A DNA stretch of 29,759 nt from Planctomycetota bacterium (GTDB lineage: Bacteria > Planctomycetota > UBA11346), in NCBI GenBank assembly GCA_038231435.1, contig JBBRLJ010000053.1, forward strand, positions 1-29,759, written 5' to 3'. Below the pieces are notes generated by a model. The model was given only the letters and a program-made list of their open reading frames with translations, ran no database searches and was not told the DNA's origin. The position numbers were made by a program, and so were the translations under genes. Shown one piece after another: positions 3,392 through 27,184 of this stretch (the stretch's first letter is position 1; the number at the start of each line of letters is the position of its first letter).

Positions 3392-4891
3392 ATGACCGCC
3401 ACGCCCGTCGAACGTGCCGCGCGTGACGACGGCGCTCCGGTCGCCGAGTTGGCGCGTCACGCGGCGACCTTCCTGGCGAGCGGCTCCTGGAATCGTGAAC
3501 GACTGGCCGCCATCGCCGCCGAATCCAACCACCTGCCGCCACGCTCCCTGGTCAACGCCAAGGCGCTCGGGCAACCGGACACGGCCGCGATCGTCACCGG
3601 TCAGCAGCCGGCCGTCGGAGGCGGCCCCCTCTACACCCTGATCAAGACCGCCCACGCCATCGCCATGGCGCGTGCGTTGTCGGCCGCGGGCACGCCGTCG
3701 GTGCCGGTGTTCTGGTGTGCGAGCGAGGATCACGATCTCGGCGAGGCCGGCCATGCCGATCTGATCCGCCGCGATGGCGCGATCACGCGCTACGCCAACA
3801 CGCTGGGTGGCGGCCGACAGAGCCTGCGCCACCGGCCCGCTCGTCTCTGGTGGGACGGTCTGATGGCCACCTGCCGCGAGCAGCTCGGCCCTGGACTCGG
3901 CGCGGATTTCCTCGCCAGTCATGCGCCGATCCACGGCGGCTCGGGCCATGGCGGCGACGACGGTGGCGAAGGAATGGGCGCGTGGCTGTGCCGTCTGCTG
4001 CGCTCGGTCTTCGCCGCTCACGGACTCGTCTGCCTGGAAGCGCACACGTTGCGGCCGCTGTGGCCAAATGCCCTGCGGGCGGCTCTCGAGCGTTGGCCCG
4101 CGGACGGACTCGCGCGCGTACGCGCGGCAGCGCTCGTGCGCGGAGCAGCCGATGCGTTCGGTGAGCTCCCCGAACCGCCGCTGTTCGCAGATCGTGCGGA
4201 CGCGCGAGAGAAGCTGACGCGCGAGCAGGCGCTGGAGCTCGCGCGCACGCGTCCGCTCGACCTCAGCCCCGGCGCGCCACTGCGCCCGATCCTGCAGCAG
4301 GCCGCGCTGCCTGCGGCGCTGTATGTGGGCGGACCTGGTGAACTCGCCTATCACGCCTTCCTCGGCCCGGTCTACGCAGCCGCTGGCGTGCAGCCGCCGC
4401 AGCTGGTGCCGCGCTGTTCGATGGCCCTGGCTCCGTCGTGGTGGACGCGCGCCGTGGCGCGCTGGGGCATCGACCCTGAGCGGATCTACGCCGACTCGGA
4501 GCCGCCCTTGCTGCCCGACCCCGGCGATCCGCTCGATGCTCCGCTGGACGTCCTGGACCACGCCATCGCGGACGTCGAACGCGCCGCCGAAGGACGCGAA
4601 GCAGTGGCGCTGCGCGCGCGGCGCCTGCGCCGCGACCAGAGACGCCTGCGGGCGGCAATCCAGACTGGCCTGCGCAAGGCCGCGTCGCTACCTCCGTTCG
4701 GCCAGGTGCGTGCCTGGCTCTACCCGCGCGGGCAGCCCCAGGAGCGCGTGATGAGCCTGTTCCAGGCGCTCTGGGAGCACGGCCCTGGCGTGGGCGAGGT
4801 CCTGGTTGAGGCCGCCGGCAGGCTCACGCCTGGGGAAGCGGGGGTGGTGAGGCTCGACGTACGTCAGGAAGGGCCAGAGACCGGATTCTAG
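3392..4891 (+). CDS. bshC: Bacillithiol biosynthesis cysteine-adding enzyme BshC
   Basis: Family motifs IVTGQQP..GGPLYTLIK, VPVFW.ASEDHD..E, SP...LRP..Q...LP...YVGGPGELAY and C-terminal PQERV. Confidence 0.88.
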   Translation: MTATPVERAARDDGAPVAELARHAATFLASGSWNRERLAAIAAESNHLPPRSLVNAKALGQPDTAAIVTGQQPAVGGGPLYTLIKTAHAIAMARALSAAGTPSVPVFWCASEDHDLGEAGHADLIRRDGAITRYANTLGGGRQSLRHRPARLWWDGLMATCREQLGPGLGADFLASHAPIHGGSGHGGDDGGEGMGAWLCRLLRSVFAAHGLVCLEAHTLRPLWPNALRAALERWPADGLARVRAAALVRGAADAFGELPEPPLFADRADAREKLTREQALELARTRPLDLSPGAPLRPILQQAALPAALYVGGPGELAYHAFLGPVYAAAGVQPPQLVPRCSMALAPSWWTRAVARWGIDPERIYADSEPPLLPDPGDPLDAPLDVLDHAIADVERAAEGREAVALRARRLRRDQRRLRAAIQTGLRKAASLPPFGQVRAWLYPRGQPQERVMSLFQALWEHGPGVGEVLVEAAGRLTPGEAGVVRLDVRQEGPETGF

Positions 4892-5010: not shown

Positions 5011-7719
5011 ATGGCCGACGATCCGCTCATCGGCTTCCAGACCGATTCGCTGCGCTTCGAGAAGCTCCTCGGCAAGGGCGCCATGGGGGCGGTCTACCGC
5101 GGGGTGCAGCTCGGGCTCGACCGCGCAGTGGCCATCAAGGTGATCTCGCCCCAGCTCGCGGATGATGCCGATTACATCGCGCGCTTCGGCCGCGAGGCCC
5201 GCACCATCGGCAAACTCGTCCACCCGAACGTGATCGCCTGCCACGATTTCGGCCCAAGCCCCGGTCCACGTGGCGAGCAGCTGTACCTGATGGTGCTCGA
5301 GTTCGTCGATGGCTGGAGCCTCGGCGGGCTCGCGAAGGGCAAACGCCTCGCGGTACGTCAGGTGCTCGAGCTGCACAGCCAGGCCGCCGAGGGTCTCTAC
5401 GCCGCGCACCAACTCGGCATCGTTCATCGCGACGTCAAGCCCGACAACATCATGGTGACCAAGACCGGCGATGCCAAGCTCGCCGACTTCGGGCTGGCGC
5501 GCCAGATGGAGAACGCGCAGCTCACGCAGGCCGGCTCGATCATGGGCAGCCCGGCCTTCATGTCTCCGGAAGCCTGCCGCGGTGAGGAGCCGACGCCGGC
5601 TTCAGACATCTACAGCCTCGGCTGCTCAGTCTACCAGACGCTCACCGGCGGGGCCGTCTATCCTTCGAACAGTGCGCTGCAGGTCATGCAGGAGCACTTG
5701 AATTCGCCGATCCCCAAGCTGAGTGCCAGCCGCCCCGATCTCGCGGCGCTGCAACCACTGCTCGAGCGCTGCCTGGCCAAGGATCCGAAGAGCCGTTTCC
5801 CAGATGCTCACGCGCTCGCCAAGGCCTTGCGCCACGCGGCCACGCAGGTGCCCAAAGACCTCATGGCGGGACGCATGGCGCGCGCCGAGCTGGCCTCGGC
5901 CGCAGAACCCGGGACGTCGCAGACCGAGGTCTCGCGCCCGTCACTGGGCAAGCGCGCCGACGCGACGCACGCCACGGAACCCATGTCGCCCGTGGTCAGG
6001 CAACGGCGCCGGCTGGTCGTCGGCGTGGTCGGCGCCATCGTCGCGTGCATAGTGGTGCTGGCGGTGGTGGGCAAGAAACCACCGCCATCACCAGCGACGC
6101 CCACCGTGCCCACCGTCGCCGTCACGCCAGCCGACGCGCATCCGGCCTCGCCCACTCCAGCCGTCCCCGCTCCCTCGCCCAAGACCGCGCCAGTGGACGC
6201 CCACACCGCCGCCATCACCGCGACCTTGGACAACGCCCAGCGTCTCATCCGCGACTCGGATCTGCCGAAGGCCGAAGCAACCCTGCGCGATCTCATGGTC
6301 AGCGGCGAGCTCAAGACGCGGAAGAAGGCGCTGCAGGAGGAACTCGACCAGGCTTGGAAGGCGCAGGCCGCCAAGATCGCCCAAGACCTCGATATCCAGG
6401 AGCGGTTGATCACGCGCGATACCGCGACGGCGATAGCCGGCCTGGAAGCCCTGCGCGTGCCCGATCACCACCCCGATCTGATCGCGCGGCGCGACAAGCT
6501 GCTGGCGCAGGCGCGCGAGCACAAGCCCGTCACGCCGCCGGTCGTCGCCGTCCGTCCGAGCACGCCCGACACCGCGCCCCAGACCGTGAACGAACTGCCC
6601 AAGGTGACGCTGCTACGCAACGAGGATCTCGCTCCGCTGCAGCGCGTGCCCGCCGGACACCCCCGCCTGCCCGGAAAGCTCCCGCTCGGGGACCTGCTGC
6701 TCGCCTTCAGCCAACCCTTCCAGGAGCGCACCTGCCTGCTGCTGCGCATGCCGGCAAGCCGCGGTGGCGAGGATGGGCTGCTGCTGGTCATCCATGGCGG
6801 AACGCTGGGAGAGAAACGCACCCTGCGCGTCGAAACCAGACCGCTCGGGGGCCAGGCGGCGGAGCTGTTGCAGAACGTCACCCTGTCGGGAACGGACTGG
6901 GATGTGGTGCCGTTGCGATTCACCGACCATATGCAGGGAATCCGCGAGGTCTTCCTGAGCACCGTTGGAACGGTGCGCGAGCCCTTCTACCTGGCCAAGG
7001 CAGCGTTCTGCGCGAACGGTATTCCGGGATGGAACGATCTCGGCCTGGCCGCGGGCACGCTCACCCAGATGGACACCCTACGCAACGGCTCCTTCTTCCA
7101 CCTGATCGGCGCGATCAAGTCGCGGCGCACGGACTTCCCCCAATACGACCAATGCCGGATCGCCCTGCCCGATGCATTGTTCAAGGACGCGCACGACCAG
7201 ATCGCCACGCTGCTCTCGTCTCTGGATGCGCGCTTCGCCACCGATCCCGCACATCCAGACCACGAGAAACCCAGCGCCGGCCGCGCGGTGATCCCGTATT
7301 CGAACGCCACCGCCGTTCGCTATCTCATCGACAAATCGGGCGGAGAGCGCGGCAAGACCAACGTCTTCTTCCTCCTGCTCTCGACGGCCAAAGCGCCAGA
7401 GATCAAGGCGCAGGAAGCGGTCGATTCATTCAAGGATGCCTGCGAGAAGGCTCCGGGGATCCTGCCGGTGCTGGTGCTGAGCTCGAACGCATACGAGGGA
7501 CCGCTGCGCGCCGAATGGCAGGCGCTGATCGCCGAGATCCGCGCCGGCTTGCCGGGCTTGCCGATCATCGATCTCGCCGAGGTGCCGATCCAGCTCGCCA
7601 GGTACGGCGTGCCGATCACGCTGTCGTCGAAGGCCGGTCAGGACGCTCTGCTGGCCGGATTCGAGGCGGGCGTGGCTGAATTGCGCTCGCGCATCGACTT
7701 CGTGATCAACCACTTCTGA
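5011..7719 (+). CDS. Membrane-anchored Hanks-type Ser/Thr protein kinase with large uncharacterised C-terminal region
   Basis: Intact GKGAMG, VAIK, HPNV, HRDVKPDN, DFG, GSPAFMSPE and SDIYSLG motifs. One TM helix (LVVGVVGAIVACIVVLAVV) after RQRRR, then a Pro/Thr-rich linker. Confidence 0.93.
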   Translation: MADDPLIGFQTDSLRFEKLLGKGAMGAVYRGVQLGLDRAVAIKVISPQLADDADYIARFGREARTIGKLVHPNVIACHDFGPSPGPRGEQLYLMVLEFVDGWSLGGLAKGKRLAVRQVLELHSQAAEGLYAAHQLGIVHRDVKPDNIMVTKTGDAKLADFGLARQMENAQLTQAGSIMGSPAFMSPEACRGEEPTPASDIYSLGCSVYQTLTGGAVYPSNSALQVMQEHLNSPIPKLSASRPDLAALQPLLERCLAKDPKSRFPDAHALAKALRHAATQVPKDLMAGRMARAELASAAEPGTSQTEVSRPSLGKRADATHATEPMSPVVRQRRRLVVGVVGAIVACIVVLAVVGKKPPPSPATPTVPTVAVTPADAHPASPTPAVPAPSPKTAPVDAHTAAITATLDNAQRLIRDSDLPKAEATLRDLMVSGELKTRKKALQEELDQAWKAQAAKIAQDLDIQERLITRDTATAIAGLEALRVPDHHPDLIARRDKLLAQAREHKPVTPPVVAVRPSTPDTAPQTVNELPKVTLLRNEDLAPLQRVPAGHPRLPGKLPLGDLLLAFSQPFQERTCLLLRMPASRGGEDGLLLVIHGGTLGEKRTLRVETRPLGGQAAELLQNVTLSGTDWDVVPLRFTDHMQGIREVFLSTVGTVREPFYLAKAAFCANGIPGWNDLGLAAGTLTQMDTLRNGSFFHLIGAIKSRRTDFPQYDQCRIALPDALFKDAHDQIATLLSSLDARFATDPAHPDHEKPSAGRAVIPYSNATAVRYLIDKSGGERGKTNVFFLLLSTAKAPEIKAQEAVDSFKDACEKAPGILPVLVLSSNAYEGPLRAEWQALIAEIRAGLPGLPIIDLAEVPIQLARYGVPITLSSKAGQDALLAGFEAGVAELRSRIDFVINHF

Positions 7720-10871: not shown

Positions 10872-13043
10872 ATGAACGCATCACCGGTGGACCTCCCCTT
10901 CTTGTGGGGCGCCCAATACTACCGCGCTCCGACCCCGGATGCGTCGTGCTGGGCGGGCGACCTGGCGCGCATGCGCGAGCTCGGCTTCACCGACGTGAAG
11001 TTCTGGGTCCAATGGCGCTGGTCGGAGCGCGAGCCGCGGCGCTTCGTCTGGGACGACCTCGACCGCCTGATGGATCTCGCCCAGTCCAATCGGCTGCGCG
11101 TGACCCTCAACACCATCTTCGACGTCGCGCCGACCTGGCTCTACCGCCAATTCCCGGACGCCAAGCAGATCACCGCGGACGGACGCGTGATCGAGCCCTA
11201 CGCGCTCGGCCACCGCCAGATCGGTGGAGGTCCCGGTCCATGCTACAACCACCCCGGCGCCCGCGCCGAACGCGAGCGCTTCCTCACCGAGACCGTCGCG
11301 CATTTCGCGCCGCATCCAGCGCTCACCATGTGGGACATCTGGAACGAGCCCGAGCAGTGCTTCCCCTCGCGCGATCCGCGCCCGGGAAACTACGTCTGCT
11401 ATTGCGCGAACTGCCTGTCCGGCTTCATCGCCTGGCTGCGCGACCGCTACGCCTCGCTCGAGGCGCTCAACCAGCGCTGGGGCCGCTGTTATGTGCGGTG
11501 GGACGAGGTCGAAGCGCAGCGCGTGCCCGACACCATCGTCGACTGGATCGAATGGCGCGAGTTCCAGCTCGACACCATGGCCGGCGAGGCGCGCTGGCGG
11601 CTCGCCGTGGCCGAACGGCTCGATCCCGGCCGGGTGCGCTACCTGCACGTCGTACCCAACACCATGGACTGCTTCAACGCGGTCAGCTGCGTCGATGATT
11701 TCGATCTCGCCGGCGATTGCCAGGTGTTCGCTTCGACGATGAACGCCTCGGCGAACTCGACGATCCAGACGCTCTCGGCTGGGCACGGCAAGATCTGCTA
11801 CAATGTCGAGAGCCACATCGATTTCGGCTCGACCGGCATGCACCAGCGCATGCTCGGCCTCGCCGACCTGCGCCGCGACCTGTTGCCGCAGATAGGCCTG
11901 GGCGTGAAGGGCTTCCTGTTCTGGCAGTACCGCGCCGAGACGCTCGGCACCGAGTCGCCGGCGTGGGGACTGGTGCGGCCGGATGGCTCTGATCGCCCGA
12001 TCACCGAGGGCGCGCGCGTCTTCGGCGCGGCGCTCGCTCCTCGCCAATGGGCGCTGATGCGCGCGCATCCAGGACCAGCGCCGATCGCGATCTGGAAGAG
12101 CCGCCAGAACGAGCTCTTCCATCACGCCATCCATGGTGGCTTCGGGCAGCTCGTCGAGGCGGTCGACGGCTACGTCCAGACGCTCTACTGGAGCAGCCAC
12201 GCCTTCCGCTTCGTCTCCTCGGCGATGCTCGCCGCCAACGCGCACGAGGGCGTGCGCCTGCTGATCATGCCCTCGTGCTATTGGCTGTCGGCCGCCGAGG
12301 CGGCCGCCTTGCGCGTGTTCGTCGCGCGCGGAGGCGTGCTGCTCGCCGAGGCGCATCTCGGCGCCTACGACGCCGACGCCGGGCGGCACAGCCAACGCGT
12401 GCCCGGCCACGGCCTCGACCAGGCGTGGGGGATCAACGAGATCGATTCCACGTCGTCCTACCACCTGCGACTGCAGCAGATCGAGGCCTTCGCCGGCGAA
12501 CTCGCGCCCGATGTGCGCAAGGCCTTGAGCGCGGCTGGCGCCAGCGGCGGCCAGTTCTTCCCCATCGACATAACCAGCGGCGGGCGCACCTGGGGCTCGG
12601 ACCGTTTCGCCCTGCTCGGCGGCGATGATCTGACCATCGAAGGATCGTTCGCCGGACTGCCGTGCATCGCCTCGAAGCAGCTCGGCGAGGGCGCGCTGTT
12701 CTATGTCGGTACGCGCTGGGGTCAGGCGACGCGCAAGGATGCCGATGCGCTCCTACCGCTGCTACGCCGCGCGCTCGCACGGGCCGGGGTTTCCCCCATC
12801 GCCGATTCCCGCGCCGGCGCGGTGCACATCGACGTGCTGCTCGAGGGACCGTCGCCGCGTTTCCTGGTGGCGGTCAACCGTTCGGCGGACACCCATGAGG
12901 CGCGCCTCGCGCTCCCGGGCCGTTGGCGGGGGATCTTCGATGGAGCGGTGATCGCGCCAGGCGCGCCGGTGATCGCCCTGGCGGAGTCGGCGGAGATCTA
13001 TGAGCCGATGGAGCCAATGGAGCCAATGGAGCCGATGCCCTGA
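10872..13043 (+). CDS. GH42-like beta-galactosidase (TIM barrel + trimerisation domain)
   Basis: WGAQYY, W...E..P..F.W..LD, WDIWNEP (acid/base), CYC..C...F..WL..RY.SL.ALN.RWG, YNVE (likely nucleophile), FWQYR...G.E, and a glutamine-amidotransferase-like trimerisation segment. No signal peptide. Confidence 0.88.
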   Translation: MNASPVDLPFLWGAQYYRAPTPDASCWAGDLARMRELGFTDVKFWVQWRWSEREPRRFVWDDLDRLMDLAQSNRLRVTLNTIFDVAPTWLYRQFPDAKQITADGRVIEPYALGHRQIGGGPGPCYNHPGARAERERFLTETVAHFAPHPALTMWDIWNEPEQCFPSRDPRPGNYVCYCANCLSGFIAWLRDRYASLEALNQRWGRCYVRWDEVEAQRVPDTIVDWIEWREFQLDTMAGEARWRLAVAERLDPGRVRYLHVVPNTMDCFNAVSCVDDFDLAGDCQVFASTMNASANSTIQTLSAGHGKICYNVESHIDFGSTGMHQRMLGLADLRRDLLPQIGLGVKGFLFWQYRAETLGTESPAWGLVRPDGSDRPITEGARVFGAALAPRQWALMRAHPGPAPIAIWKSRQNELFHHAIHGGFGQLVEAVDGYVQTLYWSSHAFRFVSSAMLAANAHEGVRLLIMPSCYWLSAAEAAALRVFVARGGVLLAEAHLGAYDADAGRHSQRVPGHGLDQAWGINEIDSTSSYHLRLQQIEAFAGELAPDVRKALSAAGASGGQFFPIDITSGGRTWGSDRFALLGGDDLTIEGSFAGLPCIASKQLGEGALFYVGTRWGQATRKDADALLPLLRRALARAGVSPIADSRAGAVHIDVLLEGPSPRFLVAVNRSADTHEARLALPGRWRGIFDGAVIAPGAPVIALAESAEIYEPMEPMEPMEPMP
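13002..13037 (+). repeat. 9-bp tandem repeat x4 (gagccRatg) encoding (EPM)4 at the GH42 C-terminus
   Basis: gagccgatg gagccaatg gagccaatg gagccgatg directly before ccc-tga. Confidence 0.9.
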
Positions 13044-13077: not shown

Positions 13078-15963
13078 TCATGCTCCGTAGAGCTCCTTCA
13101 CCCGCGCCTGGAACTCCTCGCTCAGGCGTGTGCCCTCGCGCATCTTCTCTTCGACCGAGGCCGGCCCCGCCATGAGCAGCGCCATGGCTTCCTGCAATTC
13201 GCGACCCAAGCGCTGGGCGACCTGGTATTTCTCGGCGTAACCATCGGACGTACCTGGAGTCGCTGGCGCATCCGATGTGCCAGACGCCCCCGTCCCGATG
13301 CCCGTCCCTGACCGAGGCGGCGGCGAGGGCGGAGGCACGGGAATGGTCGCGCGGATGTCGCGCAGCGCGTATCCACCTTCGACGGACAGGTCGAAGGTTG
13401 GATCGGCAAGGATGTCCGCGAGCGCTGCGACCACCTCGTCGCGCCAGGTTGGATGGGCGCCCATCTTGGCGAGCCAGCGCAATGCCGCGCGGCGGAGGCG
13501 ATCGTCGTCATGGACCGAGCGCTTGCTGGCCACCAACGAGATCGCCCCGCGCACCAGGGCGATGCCGGGATCGCCGATCTGCTCTAAGGCCTTCGTCAAG
13601 GACTTCGCGTTCGCTGGCGTCGGGTCGGCCAGCAATTCGTTGAGAAATCTCGCCGCGACCCGGTCCGACAGCATCGACGCGTCGTCGAGCACGGCGGGCA
13701 GGAGCGCGACGAATCCGGCGAAACCGCCGAACGCGTGTTCCACCGCCCGAGGGTCCAGCGCGAACTGCCCCGACCCGCGCGGTGCGCGCTCCTGGTGGAT
13801 GTGCAGCGCCTCGAGTCGGATCCCGGGATCGCCTGGCCGCAGCGCGGTGGCGAGCAGGAAGCGCAGCAGGCCCTGGTCGGGAACGCCACCTGGCGCATGG
13901 ATCAACTGGTGCTCGGCGAGCTTCAGCAGCTCGCCCCTTCCAACGTCATCGACGCTCGCGAAACGGCTGGCGACGAAATCCCCGGGTAGCGCATCCCAGC
14001 GCGATTCCTCGGGGATGCCGTGGATGGACAGCCGCAGACGGCGCAGGGCCAGGTCGTAGTGGTGGTTGCCGTGCTTGCCGATGGCCTCGAGACCGGCGAT
14101 GACGCGCTCGCGCCAGCGCGGATGCGCTCCGATCCTGGACACCAGCGTGATCATCGACTCGATGGTGTACGGCCAGTAGTCGCCGGCGGCAGCGGCGAGC
14201 AGCACCGCCACCAGCTCGTCGGCGCCACGTTCCTCGGCCTGGATCGCGACGATGGCCTCGTCGTCGACCGAGCCCAGGAACGTCGCCATGAATTCGAAGA
14301 TGCCGACCTCCTTCATGGTCGCGTGATCGCCGATCAGCGCCGCGAGCCTCGGCAGGAAGTCCGCCACCGATCCGAAGAAACGGCACACGCACGCGACGGT
14401 GAAACGGAATGGCCCCTCGCCGCGGCGGTCGCCCTGGTGCTGGTACCAGCGGTGGAGCACCCACCACGCCGCCGCGCGGGTCTCGGCGGTGAATGGGCCG
14501 AAGACCACTGACATGACGAAGCGGTGGAGGGCTTCATCACCGCGTGCCTCGAGTTGCTTCTCGGCGTAGCGCAGCAGCGCGGCGCGCGTTGGCGGATCGG
14601 CTCCGGCGAAGCGCGCGGGCACGAATCCATCCGGGATCGCCCCGCGGCTGGCGGTTTCCATCAGGCCGTACTGGTTCGTGGTGAAGAGGCCGTTCTCCAC
14701 CATGTGGGCCACGATATCGATGAGCGCATCCGCCGGCAGGGCGGCCTGCTCCGAGAGCATGGACTGCAGGATGGAGCGTTCGTTGCCGGATGAGCGCGCG
14801 GCGCGGGCGATGCGCGGGGCCCATTCCGGACGCAGCCCGCGGCAGAGGATGCGCGCCGCGCGTTCGCGCAGGGTGTCGTCCGTGGTGCTCTCGACGATCC
14901 CCAGCAGCGTCTCGCCGAGTTCGGGAGCCGACTCCTTGCGGCGAACAAGAGTCTCGACCAGCTCGCGCTGCACCTCCAGCGGACTCGAACGGATCGGCTC
15001 GGCCACCGGGGCGATGACGCCAAGCTCGATGAGCGCATTGCCAGCGGCTATGCGCTCGAGGTCGTCACCCGCCAGCCCCGCGCGCAGCCGGTCCAGATCT
15101 CCGAGCGCCAGCGCAGCGCCGAAGGCGAGCTCGCGGTTCGTCGACGCCAACGCCGCGCGGACCAAGTCTTGGTCGACGAGCCCGAGCAGCGCAAGACCTA
15201 CGGACGCCGCGAGCTTCGTTTCCGGATCGCTTGCGGGATCGGTCGCCGACCCGGCGACGCGGGCCTGGAGCTCGGCGATCAGCTCGCGAGCCAGGTCGCG
15301 CGCGTGTCCGAACCTCTCCCTCACCCGCCAGCCGGAGAGGATCAGCGCCGCTTCGGCGCGCATGGCGGGGTCGCCGCCTCGGAACACCCCCGCCACCTGG
15401 TCATGCGCCTTCCAATCGCCCAGCCGCAGCCGGGCCAGCCACGCCAGAGCGCGGGTGTCCGCGAACGGCGTGGCCACCTCGATCCCCATCACCACTCGCA
15501 GATCGTCACCCGGCGGCAGCGGTGCGGCGGTCATACGCGCCAGGACAGCTTCAGGCCACGGCAGCTGAGGGATCAGCTGGTCCTCGAGCGCGGTGCTCCA
15601 GGACTTCCCGCGCAGGAAGCCCTCGAGGACCCGCACCTCGTCGACATGACGGGCGACCGCGATGGCGTGGCGCTGGTAGATGCGCGAGAAGTTTTCGATC
15701 TGGTCGGCGTCGAACTCAACCAGCTGCTTGGGGATGGTGAAGCGATCGGTGCCAGCGTCCTTGAGCATGCGCGCGGCGCCGAAGAGCCGCTCCTCGACGA
15801 TAACGGCTCCGCACGAGCGGCAGAACTTCGCCGCCGGCACCCACTTCACGCACCAGAAGCAGCGCACGTCGCGCCGCACCGCCTTGCCGCAGAAGGAGCA
15901 CAGATCGCCGGCCTTCCAATCCGGAGGCTGGGCATGGCCGCAGCCGTCGCACACCGCGCGCAT
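13078..15963 (-). CDS. Uncharacterised 961-aa protein: N-terminal double zinc ribbon, HEAT/ARM-like helical solenoid with internal duplication, Pro/Gly/Thr linker and C-terminal helical hairpin
   Basis: Four CxxC pairs in the first 51 aa (CDGC, CSFC, CFWC, CRSC). HEAT-like segments (DPAMRAEAALIL, DDTLRERAARIL, DDRLRRAALRWL). Start lies 3 nt after the upstream stop. No TM helix or signal peptide visible. Confidence 0.85.
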   Translation of the reverse strand: MRAVCDGCGHAQPPDWKAGDLCSFCGKAVRRDVRCFWCVKWVPAAKFCRSCGAVIVEERLFGAARMLKDAGTDRFTIPKQLVEFDADQIENFSRIYQRHAIAVARHVDEVRVLEGFLRGKSWSTALEDQLIPQLPWPEAVLARMTAAPLPPGDDLRVVMGIEVATPFADTRALAWLARLRLGDWKAHDQVAGVFRGGDPAMRAEAALILSGWRVRERFGHARDLARELIAELQARVAGSATDPASDPETKLAASVGLALLGLVDQDLVRAALASTNRELAFGAALALGDLDRLRAGLAGDDLERIAAGNALIELGVIAPVAEPIRSSPLEVQRELVETLVRRKESAPELGETLLGIVESTTDDTLRERAARILCRGLRPEWAPRIARAARSSGNERSILQSMLSEQAALPADALIDIVAHMVENGLFTTNQYGLMETASRGAIPDGFVPARFAGADPPTRAALLRYAEKQLEARGDEALHRFVMSVVFGPFTAETRAAAWWVLHRWYQHQGDRRGEGPFRFTVACVCRFFGSVADFLPRLAALIGDHATMKEVGIFEFMATFLGSVDDEAIVAIQAEERGADELVAVLLAAAAGDYWPYTIESMITLVSRIGAHPRWRERVIAGLEAIGKHGNHHYDLALRRLRLSIHGIPEESRWDALPGDFVASRFASVDDVGRGELLKLAEHQLIHAPGGVPDQGLLRFLLATALRPGDPGIRLEALHIHQERAPRGSGQFALDPRAVEHAFGGFAGFVALLPAVLDDASMLSDRVAARFLNELLADPTPANAKSLTKALEQIGDPGIALVRGAISLVASKRSVHDDDRLRRAALRWLAKMGAHPTWRDEVVAALADILADPTFDLSVEGGYALRDIRATIPVPPPSPPPRSGTGIGTGASGTSDAPATPGTSDGYAEKYQVAQRLGRELQEAMALLMAGPASVEEKMREGTRLSEEFQARVKELYGA

Positions 15964-15966
15964 GGA

Positions 15967-16527
15967 CTATCCGCGGGTCTTGCGGATCCGGCCCCAGAGC
16001 GCTTCCTTGTCGGCCGCGCTCATCGACGCCAGCCGCTTCGGGATCTCGTCCTTGGCCAGGCCTTCGCGTTTGAGATGAACGGCGAGATCGAGCTCGAACG
16101 TCGGGACGAACTCGGCGCCGCACTGGCGGCAGAACTTGCCCGGGCCGCTCGACGAGCACCAGTAGCACGAGAGCATCGGCTCCGCCTGCTTGCCGCACGA
16201 CACGCACAGGTCGCCGCTGTGGTACTCCTTCGGCTGCTTGGTCTTGCAGTGGATGCAGTAGACGGCGTCGGGCGAATCGACCATCACGGTGCCCGAGCCG
16301 CCCGAGCCGCCATGGACCGCAGCGGCGCCGTTCGCCCACTGCAGCACCGCGGTCGCCACGCTCTTGGTCACACCGGGAACCAGGTCGACCAGCGTGGCGG
16401 CGTCGCCCACGGTCTTGAAGTCGTCGCGCGTGGCGACTCCCGCCTTCGCCAGCTTCTTGAGCAGCGCGGGCGTCAGCCCTTTCGAGGCGAGGATGTTCTT
16501 CTCGAGCGTGCTGAAGGCCTTGGCCAT
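15967..16527 (-). CDS. Uncharacterised 186-aa protein: tandem helix-hairpin-helix (HHH_5-like) domain + double zinc ribbon
   Basis: GLTPALLKKLAKAGVATRDDF...LVDLVPGVTKSVATAV matches the HhH pattern. GGSGGSG linker, then CIHC, CVSC, CYWC, CRQC. SD GGAGGA upstream. Confidence 0.88.
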   Translation of the reverse strand: MAKAFSTLEKNILASKGLTPALLKKLAKAGVATRDDFKTVGDAATLVDLVPGVTKSVATAVLQWANGAAAVHGGSGGSGTVMVDSPDAVYCIHCKTKQPKEYHSGDLCVSCGKQAEPMLSCYWCSSSGPGKFCRQCGAEFVPTFELDLAVHLKREGLAKDEIPKRLASMSAADKEALWGRIRKTRG

Positions 16528-16673
16528 GATTCCTCCGTCAAGGATCCAGGTCTACGCGGCGCAGGCGAAACCGCCAGCGCCCGACGTGCCTTGGGTAGGA
16601 CATTGCGTCGTCTGGGGCCGCCAGGGAGCTCTTCTTGGAACACATTGTCCGGTTGGACAGCGGGTCGAAGACG

Positions 16674-24187: not shown

Positions 24188-27184
24188 ATGGACAAGGACG
24201 TCATCGCGAAGCTCAGCCAGACCATCACCCTCGAGCACGGCGAGATGGGAGCCGATGCGACGCCTGTCCCACCGCTCGGCTCAGGCCCGACGGTTGGGGA
24301 CGTCCCGTCGACCGCCACGGCGGCGGAGCCCGCGAGCGTCCACCCGGGTCTGGCTGCGCTCATGCGCGAGCGTGGACAGGGCCGTCCGCTCAAGGATATC
24401 ATCGCCGCCTCCACACCAGAGCGGCGCGATGAGCGCATCGACACGCCGAACCAGGTGGTATCGATCGCCATCGGCGCGTGCGGATCGCTCGCTCACGCCC
24501 ATCGACTCGGCTTCGTCCACCAGGACGTGAAGCCAGGAAACATCTTCGTCGGAGAATTCGGCGAAGTGCAATTGAGCGACTGGCGCAGCGCCATCCGCAT
24601 GGACGATCCGGCGGAGCGGCGGCGTTGGAGCGCCACGCCGCTCTACATGAGTCCCGAGCAGGCCAATCATCAGCCGACCGATGCCCGCACCGATGTCTAC
24701 TGCCTGGGTGCCACGCTCTTCGAGATGCTGCTGCTGCGTCCGCCCAACCTGGCGCTCGATGAGGAGACGCTGTGGGCGAAGAAGCGTATCGGCGCGATCG
24801 ATCGACCGACCGACGACGAGCGGCGGCAGGTGCCGGGCCCGCTCCTGGCCGTGGCCATGAAGGCTCTCGCCGCGGATCCACGAGACCGCTATCAGGATGC
24901 CGCCGCGATGCTCAAGGCGTTGCGCGACTACCAGGAGGGCTTGGCGACCAGCGCTGCGCCCGGATCGCTGAACGAGTGGCCCATGCGCTGGTACCGGCGC
25001 AATCGCACACTCTTCTGGATGGCGGCGGTAGGGGCGGTGCTGCTGGGCGCCGTATCGTGGATGCTGGCGGTCGAGAAAGCCAAGGAGCGCGCGCAGTGGC
25101 GCGTGGTCTACGATGCCGATTTCAAGGGCACGACGGCGAAGGCTCTCGACCGCTCCTGGATCCCCACCGTGTCGGCGAACAGCCACGACCCGTTCACGCC
25201 GATCTCGTTCACCTCGGAAGAATTCGCGATCGACGCCAAGGGACTGACCATCCATGGCACCCAGGGCGGCTATGTCGACGTCTCCTACCGCAACGATCTG
25301 GTCGGCGATGTCCGTGTGGAGTGGGACTACGCCTGCGATCATCGCAACCTGAATTACAACTGCTACATCGGCGGGTCCAACCGCTGGAACTCGCACATGT
25401 TCCACATCGGATCCTGGAACAACCCGGCCTACGCCGCGCTGACCCACGGGGCGGACTACAGCGTCATCGACAGCGATTTCCTCGAGCATCCGCTGGCCGC
25501 GGGACACGTATACCGCTTCGCGATGGAGCAGGATCATGGGCGGTTGCGCCTGCTCATCGATGAGCGCGTGATCTTCGATCTCGACAATCCATCCGACATC
25601 TACGGCGACCGCTCGAACACCTTCGGCTTCGACGCCGTCGGCATCACCGATCTGCGCATCTCGCACGTGCGGGTGATGCACAAGCCCCTGCCGCAGAGGA
25701 TTTCGCCGCTCGCGGTGGCCGACAGCTTGCTGCAGATGCGCGACTACCCCAGCGCCGCCCAGCACTACCTCGACATCGAGAATTCCTACCCAGGCACCGA
25801 GCTGGCGCACACCGCCCACTTCCGCTACGCCATCAGCTGCCTGCGCGCCGGCGACACTGCCCACGCGGTCGAGCTGCTCGGGCGCCTCGCCTCCCAGGAC
25901 CAGGACGATCCGCAAACCCCCTACGCATGCTATGAGCTGTTGAACGCCCTCGGGCAGCAGGGTGACAAAAAGGCGATCTCGGAGCTGCTCGAGCGCTTCG
26001 GCCACTGGCAGGGCCATCCCGTCCTGCCTCGCGTCATGGCCTGGATCGCGGACAGCCACCTGGGCGAGCTCCAGACGCTGAAGGTCGAGAAGGTCGGCGA
26101 TCCCGAGCGCAGGCCCGACATCGTCGCGTGCATCAAGATGACCATCGCCGAGCTCCAGGAGTGGGGCCATCGCTACGACGTGGCATGGTGGAAGAACACC
26201 TACGCCTTCATCGCCGGCGATGTGCTGCGCTCCATGGGCGATGGTTCGGACGTGATCGCGAATTTTCCCCGCCAGTCCTTGACCTACCAATCGGCCCTGG
26301 CCGAGGCGGGGCGCTTCACCGACGTGTTGGAGTTGGCCCCGCCCGGCTCGCCCGCGCGGGCCTGGGCCCTGGTCGGCCTAGGCCGCCACGACGAGGTGCT
26401 GGCCGACGCCTTCTACCCTGAGGACATCAAGTGGGAATTGTACGCCCAGCGAGGCGACCTGCCGAAACTGCTGGAGAACCGCGCTCTGGTGCCGAGCCAG
26501 TGGGCGAAAACCCTGCTGCTCGCCGGTCGCTATGACGAGGTCATCGATCAAAGCCCCGATCCCAAGACCCTGGCTGCGGCGCTGGTCGCGCTCGGCAGGG
26601 CGAAGGAGATCGAGAGCCGCACCAACGACATGATCGCCGTATCGCGCGGGCTGGTCGAACTGCGCGAATACGATCAGCTTACCAGCCGCTTCCCGATCGC
26701 GTACGAGAACCTCTACCTGGCGGCGGAGCGGCAGTGGTTCGCCGGTGACCTCGCTGCGGCCGGAAAGCTGCTCGCCGACCTGGACCGCTCCCAGGCACCG
26801 CTCGAGATCAGCGACATCATGTTTGGACGCTATGTGTTCCCCGGCGTCATCAAGCTCATCAGTGGCACCTCCACCGATCCGGCCGTCGAGTTCGAGCCGC
26901 TGATCGTCCGCTCGCGCGGCTGGTATCAGCAGCAACTCTGGCACCAGCTGTCATACATCGCCGGAAAGATCGACGACCGTCAGTTCCTCGCCCAGCCCGA
27001 CCACAACCTGGTCGAGGAACGACTGCTGCTCGCCCAGGCGATCGCCAACGACGTGCGCGGCAAGCACGATGAAGCCCTCGCCGCCTACACCAAGTTCGCG
27101 GCCCTGCCGTGCTTCCGTCCGTCGTTCCGCGAATGCGACCGCGATTTCGTCACCTGGCGCATCCATGAGTTGACGCCGCGCTAA
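24188..27184 (+). CDS. Membrane-anchored pseudokinase: degenerate Ser/Thr kinase domain + TM + ConA-like beta-sandwich + TPR-like repeats
   Basis: C-lobe motifs present (HQDVKPGNI, TPLYMSPEQ, TDVYCLGATLFE, KALA.DP.DRY). No GxGxxG or VAIK; DWR stands in place of DFG/DWG. TM at ~25007-25072; TPR-like AAQHYLDIENSYPGTELA. Confidence 0.85.
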   Translation: MDKDVIAKLSQTITLEHGEMGADATPVPPLGSGPTVGDVPSTATAAEPASVHPGLAALMRERGQGRPLKDIIAASTPERRDERIDTPNQVVSIAIGACGSLAHAHRLGFVHQDVKPGNIFVGEFGEVQLSDWRSAIRMDDPAERRRWSATPLYMSPEQANHQPTDARTDVYCLGATLFEMLLLRPPNLALDEETLWAKKRIGAIDRPTDDERRQVPGPLLAVAMKALAADPRDRYQDAAAMLKALRDYQEGLATSAAPGSLNEWPMRWYRRNRTLFWMAAVGAVLLGAVSWMLAVEKAKERAQWRVVYDADFKGTTAKALDRSWIPTVSANSHDPFTPISFTSEEFAIDAKGLTIHGTQGGYVDVSYRNDLVGDVRVEWDYACDHRNLNYNCYIGGSNRWNSHMFHIGSWNNPAYAALTHGADYSVIDSDFLEHPLAAGHVYRFAMEQDHGRLRLLIDERVIFDLDNPSDIYGDRSNTFGFDAVGITDLRISHVRVMHKPLPQRISPLAVADSLLQMRDYPSAAQHYLDIENSYPGTELAHTAHFRYAISCLRAGDTAHAVELLGRLASQDQDDPQTPYACYELLNALGQQGDKKAISELLERFGHWQGHPVLPRVMAWIADSHLGELQTLKVEKVGDPERRPDIVACIKMTIAELQEWGHRYDVAWWKNTYAFIAGDVLRSMGDGSDVIANFPRQSLTYQSALAEAGRFTDVLELAPPGSPARAWALVGLGRHDEVLADAFYPEDIKWELYAQRGDLPKLLENRALVPSQWAKTLLLAGRYDEVIDQSPDPKTLAAALVALGRAKEIESRTNDMIAVSRGLVELREYDQLTSRFPIAYENLYLAAERQWFAGDLAAAGKLLADLDRSQAPLEISDIMFGRYVFPGVIKLISGTSTDPAVEFEPLIVRSRGWYQQQLWHQLSYIAGKIDDRQFLAQPDHNLVEERLLLAQAIANDVRGKHDEALAAYTKFAALPCFRPSFRECDRDFVTWRIHELTPR

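Follow-up and report, generated by a model that had tools for sequence, protein, structure and literature searches.

In its sections on effector-associated domains (EADs), Kaur et al. (2020, PMC7159879) describe a small non-enzymatic domain that sits at the terminus of two proteins, often encoded by adjacent genes, with one copy fused to a core (VMAP, iSTAND, Ubl or GAP1) and other copies fused to effector or signalling domains that are usually enzymatic; neighbouring copies are closer to one another than to copies elsewhere. An excerpt of PMC13017515 offers a further precedent in RAZR, a zinc finger that acts in phage-triggered assembly. Here we analyse two adjacent genes, A and B, at positions 13,078 to 16,527 of a 29,759-nucleotide (nt) stretch of DNA from a Planctomycetota bacterium (the window; contig JBBRLJ010000053.1 of assembly GCA_038231435.1), whose products share a module of about 100 amino acids (aa) made of two zinc ribbons and three helices. 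We conclude that A and B are a genuine and conserved two-gene unit, apparently undescribed, which is built on this new module. An earlier note on this DNA had placed the two genes 3 nt apart, and we found both genes at its coordinates, on the reverse strand, with a junction that reads TAG-TCC-ATG.

15967..16527, reverse strand: gene A, 186 aa, a strongly conserved small protein and putative adaptor or regulator
13078..15963, reverse strand: gene B, 961 aa, a putative core scaffold or sensor in which an alpha-solenoid follows the module and a C-terminal hairpin ends the chain
15964..15966, reverse strand: 3-nt spacer between the gene A stop and the gene B start, a spacing that recurs in most tandem loci
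15970..16266, reverse strand: A copy of the module, aa 88-186, with zinc ribbon 1 (C91-C111), zinc ribbon 2 (C121-C136), three helices and a basic end
15664..15960, reverse strand: B copy of the module, aa 2-100, where the conserved polar residues of the B family mostly lie

The C-terminal half of A aligns to the N-terminus of B, as the earlier note had seen: residues 91-175 of A match residues 5-90 of B with 33 identities in 86 positions (38%) and one gap (pairwise BLASTP, E 6e-15). The helical tail also matches by itself (A 137-186 versus B 52-105, hhalign probability 96.8%, E 2.7e-10), whereas none of 28 control windows taken along B exceeds a probability of 8%. Among the nine four-CxxC segments of the source genome, B scores 58.2 bits against the A module, versus 28.5 bits for the best of the seven others. 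Because the helical tail matches alone and other four-CxxC segments score lower, the likeness of A and B extends beyond cysteine spacing. An alignment of 36 modules drawn from both genes leaves the eight cysteines and two glycines unchanged throughout. In A and B, none of the Pfam labels HHH_5, DZR and HEAT_2 reaches its curated cut-off. A module profile run against 1.84 billion representatives returned 274 matches at E 0.001; the best 150 of these (representatives at 50% identity) are mostly B-type proteins of about 520-1614 aa, with 8 A-type proteins and, at the weak end, a few unrelated proteins with multiple ribbons. Each pair-carrying genome has two copies of the module and none elsewhere, and no further fusion of the module was found in 54 scanned proteins, mostly module-bearing relatives, except for one TPR extension.

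Adjacency of the two genes is conserved. In species genomes, B adjoins A in 26 of 27 loci with A (25 downstream on the same strand and 1 divergent), and at the 27th the sequence stops within A. In the metagenome set, for which the best 80 of 151 matches were kept, 68 loci are tandem, 3 are divergent, 8 have less than 300 bases downstream and 1 shows no B within 3.6 kb downstream; B thus adjoins A in 71 of 72 informative loci. The alignment offset is that of a 3-nt spacer in 51 of the 68 tandem loci, and this spacing suggests coupled translation. Judged by record titles and protein names, the families occur in at least seven phyla, with carriers in Planctomycetota, Acidobacteriota, Myxococcota, Armatimonadota, Pseudomonadota (Hahella) and Bacteroidota (A and B under consecutive accessions in Rapidithrix, A in Fulvivirga, B in Myroides), plus a Deinococcus plasmid. 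Within these groups the pair is patchy. It was detected in 2 of 40 relatives and, counting the genomes on which the samples were centred, in 4 of 401 genomes of the window's phylum, 2 of 401 around genome G409, 1 of 301 around G412 and 4 of 61 sampled from the Hahella family. Because no more than 11-16 candidates per genome were scored in the phylum searches, a blank there stands for "not found". No relatives of A turned up in viral contigs or GenBank phages.

Some individual records stand apart. In a genome labelled Bacteroidales, the A module on a short contig and the sequence upstream of it are the same as in an Armatimonadetes genome (L009/L010), probably through a binning error; a locus labelled Bdellovibrionales (L020) likewise closely resembles the Myxococcota loci L018 and L019. 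At L137 (genome G940) the A match has one internal TGA stop and B forms the longest branch in its group, possibly a decaying copy.

The module copies of A and B form separate clades (100/100) in a tree of 39 modules. Cognate A and B modules are no more alike (identity 0.348) than non-cognate ones (0.348; 18 pairs), and A-A and B-B distances correlate across the same number of pairs (Mantel r 0.74). These separate clades, equal identities and correlated distances therefore indicate a single early duplication of the module, after which the pair moved as a unit and its members co-diverged in lasting linkage. Homotypic docking through the module, which the earlier note had proposed, is something that we infer, and it would have to operate between copies that are old separate clades and not matched lineage-specific pairs.

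B can also persist without A. Across 301 Myxococcota genomes, the module profile matched 60, of which 13 carry both genes side by side and 47 carry one B-like gene; the A profile found A in those 13 only, and fuller searches of nine single-B genomes found no A, while a control genome matched. The 13 pairs comprise 8 tandem, 3 convergent and 2 divergent arrangements, so that linkage holds in 5 of 13 despite a change in orientation, and A always lies beside a two-ribbon B. All 17 single-B loci that were checked lack zinc ribbon 1. Proteins of this form include hypothetical proteins named from Myxococcus xanthus, M. stipitatus and Corallococcus. This joint loss of A and ribbon 1, seen in one well-supported clade of nine and one unplaced lineage, gives the clearest hint that B's ribbon 1 may serve A, and points to B as the probable core and ribbon 1 as its putative A-dependent part. 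The stand-alone one-ribbon B genes (L165-L176, L140-L156) have frames of about 810-980 codons in most cases and often adjoin SDR and quinone oxidoreductase genes.

Structure models divide the remainder of the two proteins as follows.

16324..16518, reverse strand: A N-terminal five-helix SAM/HhH-fold domain, aa ~4-68, without a GhG (glycine-hydrophobic-glycine) hairpin (model, fold search, motif count)
13348..15651, reverse strand: B HEAT/ARM-like alpha-solenoid, aa ~105-872
13246..13338, reverse strand: B disordered Pro/Gly-rich linker, aa 876-906 (predicted local distance difference test, pLDDT, < 50)
13087..13242, reverse strand: B C-terminal hairpin of two helices, aa 908-959; the family has several alternative caps, of which this is one

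For A, of which we found 650 relatives, the model (pLDDT 81.5) consists of a five-helix N-domain, a flexible linker, the two zinc ribbons and the three helices. The best fold matches of the N-domain are DisA, RAD51-N, SAM domains and NusA-AR2, tied at Z 5-6.5, with the SAM matches (ASK3, Z 6.3; tankyrase and SARM1, Z 6.0) not above the HhH ones; superposition on PDB entries 3c1y, 8faz, 6v0m, 5jti and 2jzb gave Z 5.4-6.5 and a root-mean-square deviation of 2.4-3.5 over about 57-65 residues. Pfam scans of A proteins found no SAM match. Residues L8, I12, L13, K16, G17, G30, G41 and W64 are invariant in the N-domain, which therefore probably has a fixed partner, more probably a protein. Identity across loci is 41-68% in the N-domain (11 loci) and 61-86% in the module (12 loci). 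Two unnamed clusters in the ESM Atlas correspond to A. A search of solved-structure sequences with the A profile returned only designed armadillo repeats, through low-complexity likeness, and Foldseek of A against PDB and viral structures returned no match at E 0.001. The N-domain was found in none of 458 candidate proteins longer than 326 aa, in a weak search. Neither A nor B shows a transmembrane stretch or a conserved catalytic set, in agreement with the earlier note, which saw no catalytic motif.

The B model (pLDDT 91.8) begins with the module, continues as a long alpha-solenoid to aa 872 and ends in the disordered linker and C-terminal hairpin; its only strands are three short ones in the ribbons. 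The HEAT-like character that the earlier note assigned to the solenoid is borne out by generic HEAT/ARM matches (Foldseek E 4e-6 to 1e-4, VIA Z up to 10.5), and no specific structural relative was found (TM-scores at most 0.22). Residues ~642-870 align to the ~430-630 region of shorter relatives in cross-species alignments and look like an extra copy of that block, missing in short B proteins (600-650 aa); self-BLAST of five B proteins did not detect an internal repeat, whereas the cross-species alignments reveal one. Identity drops to 16-56% over aa 330-600 (12 loci). The last 75 residues of 110 B proteins likewise vary, with a small helical cap in 25, a hairpin in 6, an acidic linker followed by a longer helical domain in 7 and two pairs, and plain solenoid ends besides. 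A resemblance of the commonest cap to DUF6620 was not borne out by a search with PF20325, which gave no match in four caps or at the B locus in four genomes. A conserved small partner thus accompanies a variable solenoid and cap, the pattern expected of sensor-adaptor modules.

We favour, with a probability of roughly 0.45, a reading in which A and B form a cytoplasmic, non-enzymatic two-subunit adaptor-sensor complex: the modules would pair, the B solenoid would recognise a ligand and A would relay or control the signal. The two zinc-ribbon/helix modules would pair with pseudo-symmetry, and the surface that depends on A would be ribbon 1 of B. B would be the core, its variable solenoid recognising a protein ligand, either foreign or a cellular partner that varies between hosts, and its cap passing the output on. 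A would act as a docking adaptor, its SAM/HhH-fold domain either self-associating or binding a conserved protein of the cell, and ligand binding to B would be relayed through clustering or release of A. The working analogy is effector-associated-domain or death-domain coupling, minus any enzyme in the unit.

Several points weigh against this adaptor-sensor reading. The A-B interface is one that we infer from genomics alone, and sensing and output are wholly conjectural. Many of the loci are close relatives of one another, so that they do not count as independent; the Mantel correlation is expected from co-inheritance alone; and the joint loss of A and ribbon 1 probably represents only one or two events. 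Zinc ribbon 1 is missing from two A proteins (P0351 and P0355), and the metagenome locus L097 has A with no B in the 3.6 kb downstream, just 294 bases being covered upstream. The fold matches of the A N-domain, at Z below 8, reflect a common arrangement only and not kinship. Complex prediction with A, residues 1-340 of B and four zinc ions scored 0.00 in both of two runs, and the controls were not folded, so that by the tool's calibration the score speaks neither for nor against a complex.

Other explanations account for parts of the same evidence. A could instead be an inhibitor, a mimic of the B module that caps a B homo-oligomer, with B becoming active once A is removed or displaced, following an antitoxin-like or CARD-only-protein-like logic. 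This would suit a small protein that carries a full paralogous copy of the B N-terminal module, is usually encoded upstream and almost never occurs without B, while B exists without A. However, B has no recognisable toxic or enzymatic domain among the 54 scanned proteins, many Myxococcaceae retain a lone B in synteny amid metabolic neighbours, and plain mimicry would not need a conserved A N-domain, so we regard inhibition as unlikely. Least probable of all is that B is a structural scaffold of a membrane-coat-like or cytoskeletal kind, of the Planctomycetota type, with A as an accessory chain. A long alpha-solenoid with karyopherin/CAND1-like Foldseek matches invites the comparison, as do the zinc-domain-linked solenoids of GATOR2, which lead the Foldseek matches for A with an E of 0.025, short of significance. 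Membrane coats are nonetheless defined, in the relevant passages of PMC2799638 and bioRxiv 10.64898/2026.10.26.761892, by an N-terminal beta-propeller followed by an alpha-solenoid; the B model has no propeller, for which we reject B as a membrane-coat protein, and the pair occurs in only the 4 of 401 genomes of the phylum, making the scaffold explanation highly improbable.

The earlier note had cast A as a nucleic-acid-binding subunit, and A might tether the B scaffold to DNA or RNA through its HhH domain or its basic module, for example in sensing damage or foreign DNA. HHH_5 matches weakly in 19 of 38 A proteins, the top fold matches include the HhH domains of DisA, RAD51-N and UvrC, K16 is invariant, and the A module is basic (mean charge +5) with K, R and W conserved at its C-terminus, so that nucleic-acid binding by the module may occur. 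In XPF-family (HhH)2 domains it is the main-chain amides of the GhG motif that contact DNA (PMC3905867), but GhG is present in the first hairpin of 0 of 64 aligned A proteins and in the second of 4 of 64. Without this DNA-binding hairpin, a nucleic-acid role for the N-domain is weak; its net charge ranges from -7 to +4, SAM domains fit it equally well, and no DNA-repair genes recur among the scanned neighbours. The claim is not supported in the form that the earlier note gave it, and we think the tethering explanation improbable. It is also quite unlikely that A and B form no direct complex, both modules binding the same or a similar third ligand in parallel and the linkage reflecting co-transfer of a two-gene cassette. 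The equal identity of cognate and non-cognate modules, the unfixed orientation and a third gene (DUF1266) after B in the long-B clade all favour parallel action, whereas A loss accompanied by ribbon 1 loss in B, linkage that outlasts inversions and the 3-nt spacing speak for contact between the products.

Drawing on the SAM and death-fold adaptors of animals, the pair can be pictured more boldly as a minimal, enzyme-free receptor of innate immunity or cell conflict. The B solenoid would recognise a foreign protein, the modules would signal to A, and the SAM-like domain of A would polymerise into a filament acting on a conserved host target; the one-ribbon B of Myxococcus and Corallococcus would be domesticated, and DUF1266 would be the output subunit of the long-B clade. 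We hold this elaboration to be doubtful. If A does polymerise on activation, eukaryote-like adaptor signalling in bacteria would extend to a zinc-ribbon/SAM design.

No third gene is common to most loci, and the neighbours in the scanned loci are mostly metabolic, regulatory or housekeeping genes. A PADLOC screen of neighbouring open reading frames, called by a rough script, matched 11 of 146 at 1e-10 across 26 loci, a count that has no background set beside it; most matches are generic (three Ser/Thr kinases, TPR, a C39-ABC transporter, QueC and a type II methyltransferase), and PDC-S08 and CapP matches fall at a single locus, L011. A conflict role for the pair is unproven amid such mostly housekeeping neighbours. 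In one planctomycete clade (L001, L038, L048, L066, L070, L072 and L182) the pair lies between a 1-Cys peroxiredoxin gene and an Eco57I-like DNA methyltransferase gene, an arrangement that looks like synteny; parB, an FHA gene and dnaA are close by, which places the pair near the replication origin.

In the long-B clade, a DUF1266 gene lies directly 3' of B in two unrelated lineages (L180:7798-8460 and L181:11901-13121, also L026): in G616, a low-GC genome of a Bacteroidales-centred sample, and in all four Hahella-family carriers. It is the sole DUF1266 match in each of these five genomes, and DUF1266 was not found in the window's genome or in four other pair-carrying genomes. The portions of papers that name DUF1266 give no function, and the pair supplies its first genomic context. 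E. coli YbeR and YbeU, at the hscC locus, are presumably DUF1266 proteins. Just upstream of A at L180 (1203-3246) stand three near-identical tandem genes of 213-215 aa that differ mainly at the C-terminal tail, two of which were scanned and gave no Pfam match; a TPR histidine kinase gene lies downstream at the same locus. In one Myxococcota genome, and once only, a Tc-family (SpvB/TcdB/RHS) toxin-complex gene of 2344 aa is directly downstream of B (L177:561-7592).

In the window itself, an acetyl-CoA synthetase gene lies upstream of the pair, whose other neighbour is a beta-galactosidase gene in convergent orientation. A single study contributed four runs whose contigs contain the A and B frames, and the source sample may be among them. 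A promoter scan returned 0 matches, a terminator scan stayed at chance level and Rfam returned none; one translation signal was read from the sequence.

16532..16536, reverse strand: Shine-Dalgarno GGAGG of gene A

Elsewhere in the window, a 9-bp unit repeated four times (13002-13037) encodes a Glu-Pro-Met repeat at the extreme end of the GH42 beta-galactosidase gene, and two tandem 141-bp copies with 98% identity at the contig end (29344-29619) resemble a REP-type repeat, or else an assembly edge. At 3392-4891, a BshC-like gene (bacillithiol biosynthesis family, above the Pfam cut-off) adjoins a gene for a TraF_2-type outer-membrane protein, and a Ser/Thr kinase of 998 aa with weak TPR/HEAT repeats is encoded at 24188-27184, with a second kinase gene at 5011-7719.

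Compared with described families, each part of the pair has a general likeness and a specific difference. The N-domain of A matches the five-helix SAM, RAD51-N, NusA-AR and DisA-type HhH domains in tied fold comparisons under Z 8, but lacks GhG, stays under the HHH_5 cut-off (19.6-22.6 bits versus 27) and has its own invariant motif. The module resembles Pfam DZR (PF12773) in its four CxxC pairs and differs in scoring under the cut-off, in a fixed QP/GDLC/W/FCR pattern and in a three-helix tail that has no Pfam match; a cluster of 279-aa DZR+HEAT proteins in the ESM Atlas (feature score 0.86 versus B) is a lead only. B stacks helical pairs as do the HEAT/ARM alpha-solenoids CAND1, transportin, PP2A-A, CpcE/F and alphaRep, although this likeness is generic. 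Like the membrane coat-like proteins of the PVC group (Planctomycetes, Verrucomicrobia and Chlamydiae), B is a large alpha-solenoid protein in a planctomycete, but it lacks their propeller and is rare, patchy and spread far outside the group. The earlier note did not recognise the pair as a named system, and we found no PADLOC 2.0.0 match for A or B at E 1 and no NCBIfam model beyond zinc-finger noise; PADLOC also matched none of 11 relatives and only the TPR region of a twelfth. The literature searched holds no description of the pair, nor does the portion of PMC8195603 that was covered, and source-data or supplementary tables of PMC7159879 and PMC8195603 and subscription papers could list it.

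The closest comparison is with the EADs as set out in those sections of PMC7159879. In both, one small non-enzymatic domain occurs in the products of adjacent genes, and carriers include Planctomycetota and Myxococcota. The A-B unit differs in having neither an NTPase core nor an enzymatic effector, in copies that are old separate clades and not mutual closest relatives, in two copies per genome and not many, and in a module of zinc ribbon plus helices; Pfam scans of A and B relatives found no EAD core or effector domains (one TPR fusion aside), nor did these recur among the neighbours, and on these grounds we reject the pair as an EAD system. The design principle of the pair is thus known, while both protein families are new, as is the module that links them across phyla. 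Cultured bacteria carry them: Hahella and Rapidithrix have the pair, as does a Deinococcus plasmid, and Myxococcus xanthus has B standing alone.

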